This document shows positions 54,001 to 57,000 of a stretch of DNA of 64,000 nt, piece by piece. Position 1 is the stretch's first letter. The number at the start of each line of letters is the position of its first letter. The stretch lies in the NCBI RefSeq assembly GCF_058153355.1, contig NZ_CM177019.1. One strand, given 5' to 3'. Made by a program: the position numbers.

Positions 54001-57000
54001 CAGGCAGATAACGCAGCAGCGCCTGCCAGGCACGTTGTTTACGTTCCGCAAGCTGACGACGTAAACGACGAAGATGGGCGTCGTAACGGCGCGTGGAAAG
54101 ATAATCCACCAGCGCAAGCTGCATCGGTGAACTGGTCGAAAGCGTACTCATCAATTGCAATCGTTGAATTTTGCGTGCGTGTTTTCCGGCGGCGACCCAA
54201 CCAATACGAAAACCTGGCACCAGACATTTCGAAAACGAAGAGCAATGCAAAACGCCATCGTGGCGATCCCACGCTTTCGCAGGCAGCGGTTTTTCCCGTC
54301 CAAAATAAAGTTCGCTGTACACGTCATCTTCAATCAGCGTTACGTTGTACTGATTGAGCAACGCTACCAGTTGTTCTTTTTTCTGCGGCGTTAAGGTAAA
54401 ACCGAGTGGATTCTGGCTATTAGTCATCAGCCAGCACGCTTTCACCGGATACTCCTGCAACGCCAGTTCCAGCGCCTGAAGATCGATCCCTTCGTTAACG
54501 TCCGTCGCCACCGATAACGCCTTCAGCCGTAACCGCTCCAGCGCCTGCAACGCGCCGTAGAAACAAGGATTCTCTACTATCACCCAATCGCCTGGTTCCG
54601 TTACCGCTTGTAAACTGAGGTTTAATGCCTCTAACGCCCCGGCGGTAATGACAATTTCATCAGGAGAAATAGTGATGCCCTGTAAGGCATAGCGACGAGC
54701 AATAGCCTGACGCAGTTCTGCGTTTCCTGGCGGTAAGTTTTCAATCACGCTCATCGCCGTGGCGGTTTTGCTTACCTGCGCCAGCGAGCGGTTTAGTTGT
54801 TGGAGGGGGAAAAGTCGCGGGTCGGGAAAGGCCGAGGCAAACGGAACTACCGACGGATCGCGACTGGCCTGCAACATATCAAAAATATAGGTGTTGATAT
54901 CGACTGCTTCATCTCGAGTGACTGGAATGACTGGCGCTTTCGGCATTTTTATTGCCTGTGGCGCAACGTAATAACCCGACTGCGGTCGCGCGATAATATG
55001 TCCCTGACTTTCGAGCAACTGATAGGCATGGCTGACAGTCATAAAGCTCATGCCAGAAAGCGCCACCTGGTCACGCAACGAAGGTAAACGATCGCCGGGT
55101 TGCCAGATACCCGACGCAATCTGCTCGCGTAATTGTTCTGCAAGCTGCTGGTATTTTTTCATTATCGAATCGTTATTATGTGCAGGTGATTCGGCAGTCT
55201 ATATCAGTTGTTAAAAATGACAACTTTTCATTAACTGTTATCAAACCATCACCAGCGATAACTCTTTGCCAAGCGCCTTAGCCACAAGCTGGACGGCGTC
55301 GATTTTTGTCGCATGGTACAAGTTAAAAAAGCGAGTAATTTCCTGTTTAGGTTTGCCAATTCGCCTGGCTAACTCTTGCTGAGTGATTTCTGACTGTAAA
55401 AAAGCATTTAACAGCAATACCTTAGAGGCGACGCTCAAAGGCACTTCAATAAAGTGATCGTGACTATTTAATGGCGAAGTTTACCTCCGTGTGTAATGTG
55501 CTCGAAAATAGCACTTAATCGCCGCAACGGCAGAATGCAATGCAAAATCAGGAAGGAAGATTCCAGAATTTCTTTGCGCTAATTTGCAAAACTGAATAAT
55601 AACCTCAAGAAACGATCGGCATCATAGCGGCAAAAGGTGAGAAAAAGGTGGCGGGATGTTTACGAAGGCGTTATCGGTTGTCTTATTAACGTGTGCGCTG
55701 TTCTCAGGACAACTCATGGCAGGGCACAAAGGACATGAATTTATGTGGGTAAAGAATGTGGATCATCAGCTACGTCATGAAGCGGACAGCGATGAATTGC
55801 GTGCCGTGGCGGAAGAGTCGGCGGAAGGTTTGCGCGAGCATTTTTACTGGCAAAAATCGCGCAAACCAGAAGCGGGACAACGTTGAGTCATTTATTTATT
55901 GCCGGATGCGGCGTGACGCCTTACCCGGCCGACAAGATCATGCAGATTCAATAAGTTGTGAGTAACCAGAAAACTGGCGTTTTACCCTTTTCGCTTCGGC
56001 AATGTTTTCAGCAGCTCATCCGGACTAACGGATGCCACTACGCTTCCCGGTAACGGCATTTTCAGTATGTGATTTTTGATTTTGCCAATGACGTGCATCT
56101 CACATGGGCGACAATCGAACTTTAGCGTTAATACTTCATCGCCATTAACCAGTTGCATTGGCGTCGCCTTCCAGCTTTTGATGTTACCTTTTGCCTGTTT
56201 CGGACACAGATTGAAGGCAAAGCGCAGACAATGCTTGGTGATCATTACCGGCACTTCCCCCTTCTCTTCATGCGCTTCATACGCCGCATCAATCAGTTGC
56301 ACACCATAGCGATGATAAAATTCACGCGCTTTCTGGTTGTAAACGTTCGCGAGGAAACTCAAATGCGTTTGCGGATAAACCGGCGCAGGGTCAGCAACCG
56401 GTTTACGACTGCCGCGCTGATAACTGACAAGACGCGCAGCATCCAGCATTTCGGCGGCCTCACGGCGGAACTGATTTAACAGACTGTTCGGTACAAACAG
56501 CGCACCAGGCAGGTTAATTTGCACATCGCGGGCGTAATAGATGGTTTGCCCCAGCTTAGCCAGACCATCTTTCAGGTTATTAAGCGCTTTTTCGGCGTTA
56601 TTAGCTTCGTCGAATTGTCCATCCAGCGTATGCGTGACGCTGACGCCCTCTTCACTGGTCAGGGTCAGAATCAGTTGTTCATGCCAGCCGCCCAGTTCAA
56701 TGTCTACCGCTACGCGACGTTCGCTGGATGTTTTGGTCAACGCCTGCTGCCAGTTATGGTCCAGATTACGATTAAGCGGATGATGCGGACGAATTTTATG
56801 CAAATCCGCAGGCATCTCATTTGGCCAGACGCGGTACTGATTTTGCCCGGTTTTTTCGACTGTATTGGCGCGAAAGCCAACCACTTCACGTTTAATCATC
56901 ACATTCAGACCATCGCCATTTGCTAACGGCTCGGTGACGGCAACATCAATATGATCTTTCGCTACTTTCAATACTTCGCCCACCGGCAGGCCAATGAATT

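Follow-up and report, generated by a model that had tools for sequence, protein, structure and literature searches.

What remains of the hicAB toxin-antitoxin module between ydcR and yncJ in the 64-kb stretch of DNA analysed here (hereafter the window), how was it reduced to its present state, and does the hicB fragment that is left still do anything? The interval in question covers 493 bp (55163-55655, from gene coordinates in the window). It is flanked by ydcR (53756..55162, minus strand, start codon at 55162), which lies downstream of the hicB remnant and encodes Pfam GntR and aminotransferase domains, and by the divergent gene yncJ (55656..55886, plus strand), which starts at 55656 and matches Pfam DUF2554. 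The context, patD-ydcVUTS-ydcR on one side of the remnant and yncJ-rlhA-sutR on the other, was collinear with the annotated strain Z0117EC0005 over a 24-kb match. The 493 bp were also found, with 100% identity, in a separate E. coli draft assembly (GCA_015332025.1), and since the same scar is present in this independent assembly, it is not an assembly artefact. A scan of the whole window at the Rfam gathering thresholds found no RNA family in or near the ydcR–yncJ interval. The sole Rfam match in the window was SECIS_3 at 17638-17696 (minus strand, 84 bits), an ordinary match of the kind expected for the formate dehydrogenase selenoprotein gene in that region.

The window appears to come from a sparsely sampled E. 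coli lineage that is represented only by drafts, because the best complete E. coli RefSeq genome was at most 98.3% identical over the 24 kb from 40001 to 64000, and because the exact YdcR protein of the window was found in just two E. coli drafts at NCBI and in a single sequencing run. Another gene near the interval, ydcT (ABC-transporter ATPase; 51335-52348, minus strand), carries a nonsense codon at 51803-51805 (codon 182, CAG to TAG) that divides it into two ORFs (181 and 137 aa). A Logan contig of the source lineage showed the same split, and a ydcT product was listed in neither of the two NCBI contigs of that lineage. In strain Z0117EC0005, it is ydcS, the neighbour of ydcT, that is annotated as frameshifted instead.

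The 445-bp deletion and the DNA that remains

The interval was placed in an alignment alongside K-12 MG1655 and four further E. coli genomes. Relative to K-12, the window lacks 445 bp (L001:979-1423, or 980-1424), and no full hicA/hicB pair was found in the aligned interval 55163-55655. The junction lies at 55478|55479 (55478..55480), with a 1-nt ambiguity that stems from a one-base microhomology (G on the plus strand). The deleted segment comprises the first 59 codons of hicB plus two bases of codon 60 (i.e., the HicA-binding N-terminal domain), the 45-bp hicA-hicB spacer, the entire 177-bp hicA, and a further 44 bp upstream of the hicA GTG start. No direct repeats flanking the 445-bp deletion were found and the microhomology is only 1 nt; judging from the sequence, the loss looks like a single illegitimate recombination event. 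The first-pass annotation had described the interval as the deletion scar of a toxin-antitoxin module in which only a 3' fragment of hicB is left between ydcR and yncJ. The alignment with K-12 agrees on both counts, the scar being one 445-bp deletion. The intact state is the ancestral one (see below).

The hicB remnant (55241..55478, minus strand; 238 nt) starts with the final base of codon 60 and runs through codons 61-138 to the stop codon. Its homology to hicB thus spans HicB residues 61-138; over these 238 nt, identity to the 3' end of K-12 hicB is approximately 96%. Within the remnant, an ORF of 67 codons with a GTG start (55241..55444, minus strand) is the sole HicB-like ORF in the ydcR–yncJ interval. 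It corresponds to HicB residues 72-138, which include the HTH domain and the C-terminal dimerising strand. The translated ORF was identical to E. coli HicB (PDB 6HPB/6HPC) at 64 of 67 positions (residues 72-138, E=1.5e-34) and matched Pfam HTH_3 (E=1.9e-8), so HicB's C-terminal DNA-binding domain is present, as had been proposed from the sequence alone. Upstream of the GTG, the homology continues for 11 further codons to 55478 (residue 61) without a start codon. An in-frame TAA stands directly upstream of the retained hicB codons, and the other two frames are closed by stops as well, which bears out the earlier reading that all three frames are interrupted there. The 20 nt before the GTG of the ORF, when read, contained no AG-rich stretch resembling a Shine-Dalgarno sequence.

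The N-terminal domain of HicB, a partial RNase-H fold that binds and neutralises HicA, is absent from the window. In a functional module, the gene for the HicA toxin, an RNase of about 58 aa with a dsRBD fold, lies directly before hicB. A tblastn search of the 64-kb window with K-12 HicA gave a best E value of 0.29, which is at chance level, and no HicA was found. The first-pass statement that the roughly 210 bp before yncJ hold no HicA-like ORF therefore stands, but that stretch is in part derived from hicB: of the 211 bp that separate the start of the ORF from yncJ, 34 bp (55445-55478) belong to the remnant and 177 bp (55479-55655) are hicA-yncJ intergenic DNA. The latter are nearly identical to K-12 in the alignment, represent 177 of its 221 intergenic bp, and probably hold the hicAB promoter P1 and the divergent yncJ promoter.

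Previous work describes the regulatory DNA of the operon. Passages in three articles (PMC6957337, PMC7167474, PMC10865869) place a HicB-repressed promoter, P2, and the operator hicO near the hicA start. According to the sections of two of them that review Turnbull & Gerdes 2017, the P2 transcript is truncated at the hicA ribosome-binding site (PMC7167474), and HicB dimers bind hicO, which is an inverted repeat (PMC10865869). A second promoter, P1, is described in passages of two other articles as lying upstream of P2 and depending on CRP-Sxy (PMC8138530, PMC11594946). The sole sizeable inverted repeat upstream of hicA in K-12 is GTAAACA-CTAA-TGTTTAC, 33-50 bp before the start codon. Directly downstream of it, TGATATACT reads as an extended -10, approximately 8 nt before the GGGAGG ribosome-binding site. 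Taking the published descriptions together with the sequence, we regard GTAAACA-N4-TGTTTAC as a candidate for hicO and, on the basis of the reviews, TGATATACT as a candidate for the P2 -10 element.

The 445-bp deletion takes the extended -10, the spacer, and one arm of the inverted repeat. Only the half-site GTAAAC of the candidate hicO survives (55479..55484, minus strand), and no inverted repeat is left at the junction in the window, whereas one is present in K-12. Because a palindrome arm and the likely P2 were deleted, the earlier suggestion that the remnant still adjoins its operator does not hold. The locus can serve neither as a toxin-antitoxin pair nor as an autoregulated operon. Consensus scans for sigma-70 promoters and terminators, run on the interval and on the K-12 locus, returned only a promoter-like site before ydcR, and they missed the published hicAB promoters even in K-12. 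A search for CRP-S sites (TGCGA-N6-TCGCA, ≤2 mismatches) found none in the retained intergenic DNA, and the window had fewer matches than expected by chance. Another, short inverted repeat, GTGCT-N7-AGCAC, lies at 55498-55514, approximately 20 bp upstream (in the sense of hicA) of the GTAAAC half-site that survives; K-12 has an imperfect version, with T in place of G at the position equivalent to 55498.

Distribution of the allele and other routes of hicAB decay

The deletion allele is common. The 60-bp junction of the window was matched over its full length in approximately 1100 of 5426 complete E. coli genomes, mostly with 100% identity, and the deleted 445 bp were present in 4256 of the same 5426 genomes, leaving approximately 1170 without them. 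Carriers include O25b:H4-ST131, E2348/69, and a record labelled Nissle (EcN), and they come from dog, human, and wastewater isolates. Every carrier record that we opened in RefSeq (ST131, D8, Ecol_542, MFDS1022581, and others) has a hicB pseudogene annotated as "incomplete; missing N-terminus". Phylogroup B2 has been reported to have lost hicAB (bioRxiv 10.1101/486399), and the spread of type II toxin-antitoxin systems across E. coli phylogroups is uneven (Fiedoruk et al. 2015, as cited in a passage of PMC7167474).

Several other forms of decay were encountered at the same locus. E. coli 00-3076 (L005:1203-1357) has a 22-bp deletion within hicA, with hicB intact, and the gene is annotated as "mRNA interferase, frameshifted". 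Approximately 886 of the 5426 complete genomes matched the K-12 segment at 90-95% identity, and all six genomes listed from this band (6/6), including O103:H2 strains, are annotated with a frameshifted hicA. The 22-bp deletion represents a second, independent route of hicAB decay. Further, in E. coli FDAARGOS_943 (NZ_CP065615.1) a 901-bp query matched over its first 154 bp only, and the annotation has ydcR beside rlhA, which suggests a larger deletion in which the hicB remnant and yncJ were lost as well.

Truncated hicB 3' remnants without hicA were also present directly upstream of ydcR in three Citrobacter genomes, namely C. portucalensis (L020:2995-3303, approximately 100 residues), C. amalonaticus (L021:3046-3219, approximately 71 residues), and Citrobacter sp. 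FP75 (L023:3001-3069, approximately 23 residues). The DNA upstream of the remnant in C. amalonaticus has been replaced by cytochrome-bd-like oxidase genes (identified by eye). These hicB tails devoid of hicA argue that ydcR-adjacent hicAB decays recurrently from the hicA side and leaves the ydcR-proximal tail behind. Estimates of dN/dS for the Citrobacter remnants were mostly uninformative, with synonymous sites saturated. The comparison of C. portucalensis with its nearest intact relative gave a dN/dS of 0.17, against 0.03 between intact genes, which hints at relaxation of the C. portucalensis remnant.

Constraint on the remnant and origin of the allele

We examined selective constraint on the 78 retained codons by parsimony counting in 8 deletion alleles, 4 intact E. 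coli-level alleles, and 3 distant intact outgroups; the deletion alleles are few and non-independent. Derived changes confined to deletion alleles comprised 7 nonsynonymous (K79N, Q88P, P103H, L110F, H114Y, A125V, and K127N) and 4 synonymous substitutions, while the variation among intact E. coli alleles comprised 0 nonsynonymous and 9 synonymous substitutions. The two sets of counts differ (Fisher p=0.005, small sample). The dN/dS of the deletion alleles was approximately 0.5, with no difference from neutral expectation (binomial p=0.29; 8 non-independent alleles), and pN/pS between intact alleles and more distant intact alleles was 0.05-0.08. The window allele has three private amino-acid changes (L110F, H114Y, and A125V) and zero private synonymous changes. 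Several substitutions fall in or near the HTH region: P103H in all five of the sampled B2-type alleles and, in the window, L110F and H114Y. The 78-codon remnant frame was still free of stops and frameshifts in nine of ten deletion alleles examined. In addition to the 445-bp deletion, E2348/69 (O127:H6; L004:771-833) carries one of 144 bp in the middle of its remnant; only 21 codons are left there, and the annotation describes them as lacking the C-terminus as well as the N-terminus. Given the small, non-independent sample, these data are strong support for, rather than proof of, relaxed constraint on the remnant.

An alternative would be that the remnant has been domesticated as a stand-alone HTH protein, made from P1 and the GTG at 55444, that serves as a small DNA-binding regulator or, at HicB operators elsewhere, as a decoy. 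Its ORF is indeed intact, with a complete HTH_3 and the C-terminal strand through which HicB dimerises (PMC11594946), most deletion alleles keep the reading frame open, and independent hicB tails persist beside ydcR in Citrobacter. The HTH domain of HicB is structurally stable alone, according to the title of Manav et al. 2019 (cited in a passage of PMC8138530), and some transcription through the remnant from P1, which probably survives, is possible. However, the ratio of 7 nonsynonymous to 4 synonymous derived changes is indistinguishable from neutrality, unlike the pattern in intact alleles, and P103H, L110F, and H114Y lie in or near the HTH region. The GTG has no Shine-Dalgarno sequence, the local palindrome that the protein would bind has been destroyed, E2348/69 has deleted most of the remnant, and no gene is called in contigs of the source lineage. 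The Citrobacter remnants, moreover, differ in length, as random decay predicts. We therefore consider domestication very improbable. A bolder version, in which the HTH-only tail is transcribed from the competence-linked P1 and has been convergently domesticated as a small stand-alone regulator in E. coli and Citrobacter, is a shade less credible still. If it were true, the persistence of the tail in a fifth of E. coli and its Citrobacter parallels would amount to convergent domestication of an antitoxin DNA-binding domain.

Neutral drift of a pseudogene is the reading that we prefer, because of the change counts, the private substitutions, the loss in E2348/69, and the missing Shine-Dalgarno sequence. 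Gene calling left the space between yncJ and ydcR empty in three independent contigs from the window's lineage, and an exact look-up of the 67-aa sequence in a collection of 15 billion proteins did not find it. Taken with the relaxed constraint, this makes the earlier suggestion of an orphan DNA-binding fragment unlikely. The remnant is presumably not expressed and is most likely non-functional. For annotation, 55241-55478 should be labelled as a hicB pseudogene and not as a 67-aa HTH protein, and the strain should not be counted as a carrier of hicAB.

Turning to the origin of the allele, intact hicA-hicB adjoins ydcR in Escherichia whittamii, Escherichia sp. E1V33, and two species representatives labelled E. 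coli, as well as in three Citrobacter genomes and a MAG labelled Raoultella. The Escherichia representatives with intact hicAB have yncJ and rlhA on the other side. Because the hicA-hicB-ydcR synteny is shared by other Escherichia and by Citrobacter-like genomes, the full module is best regarded as ancestral and the state of the window as derived. At least three distinct haplotypes flank the 445-bp deletion, so a single origin requires later recombination. Nevertheless, position 353 of the K-12 interval, 37 bp from the junction, is C in all sampled deletion alleles but one and T in the three intact alleles compared. The economical reading would be one ancient deletion followed by recombination in the flanks.

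One record deserves separate mention. EcN_Sk (L027, NZ_CP172017.1) has the same 445-bp deletion with K-12-type bases at every flanking SNP; its YdcR and YncJ are identical to the K-12 proteins, K-12-type SNPs lie within 20 bp on both sides of the junction, and its junction 60-mer is unique among the 5426 genomes. It could reflect an independent deletion, an unusual recombinant, or an effect of reference-guided assembly, and we treated it as an oddity of the record.

If the identical 445-bp deletion had recurred at a structural hotspot, one whose right end-point falls within the GTAAACA/TGTTTAC palindrome, that would also account for the diversity of flanking haplotypes and for the K-12-type SNPs close to both sides of the EcN_Sk junction, and the right end-point does coincide with the boundary between spacer and arm of the inverted repeat. 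Yet the microhomology amounts to only 1 nt and direct repeats are lacking in the flanks, so an identical deletion is improbable a second time. Among 5426 genomes, a K-12-type junction was present in one record only, the C at position 353 is common to all the other deletion alleles sampled, and the diversity of the flanks is easily explained by recombination in E. coli. We therefore give repeated origin little credence, as little as we give to domestication in its simpler form. The converse polarity, in which the short allele came first and an insertion brought hicA and the 5' part of hicB into K-12-type strains, has nothing in its favour beyond the bare presence/absence polymorphism and is refuted by a remnant that starts mid-codon and mid-protein, collinear with full-length HicB, and by the full hicA-hicB-ydcR synteny in E. 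whittamii and Citrobacter.

Proposed history and comparison with known systems

Overall, we consider it highly probable that the locus is the scar of a single deletion whose remnant is a non-functional, neutrally drifting pseudogene. One illegitimate-recombination event would have removed 445 bp from the chromosomal hicAB operon. Along with hicA it would have taken the HicB domain that binds the toxin (codons 1-59 plus part of codon 60), the spacer between the two genes, and 44 promoter-proximal bp. The lost 44 bp would have carried the likely autoregulated P2 and half of the operator palindrome, if our assignments of P2 and hicO are right. Loss of hicAB in this way should have been harmless, because toxin and antitoxin function went together in one event. 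The deletion allele would then have been inherited and shuffled by flanking recombination, and it would now be found chiefly in phylogroup B2 and also in the lineage of the window. Its HTH-coding hicB tail, left with no dedicated promoter, operator, or ribosome-binding site, would be drifting neutrally.

The hicAB deletion allele is already known, because RefSeq annotates the pseudogene and the literature reports the loss of hicAB from B2, and it is carried by approximately a fifth of E. coli. What we document here are its end-points, its population frequency, its ancestral state, and the relaxed constraint on its remnant. The window is thus one more genome in a well-populated and already annotated allele class, and in that respect it matters little. 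It offers, on the other hand, a clean example of chromosomal toxin-antitoxin decay, in which toxin, toxin-binding domain, and autoregulatory promoter were apparently lost at once and the remnant drifts.

Compared with the hicAB operon of K-12 (hicA/yncN, hicB/ydcQ), the locus of the window occupies the same chromosomal slot between the same flanking genes, but hicA, HicB's HicA-binding N-terminal domain, and the spacer are gone, as are 44 promoter-proximal bp (the P2/hicO region). Compared with the RefSeq hicB pseudogene of ST131, Ecol_542, D8, and MFDS1022581, it has an identical 60-bp junction, remnant length, and neighbours; only point differences separate it from that class, with L110F, H114Y, and A125V private to the window allele. 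Comparison with the literature, as far as the sources describe these cases, shows a similar pattern in other modules. The decay of ccdO157 in E. coli (Mine et al. 2009, in the reference list of PMC7167474) concerns a different module and a different deletion event, and the natural toxTA/hicAB deletions in Haemophilus influenzae (described in passages of PMC6957337) likewise concern a different module and different deletion events. What the locus shares with both is a chromosomal toxin-antitoxin module that is polymorphic within the species, with the toxin removed or inactivated by deletion and fragments of the antitoxin left behind.
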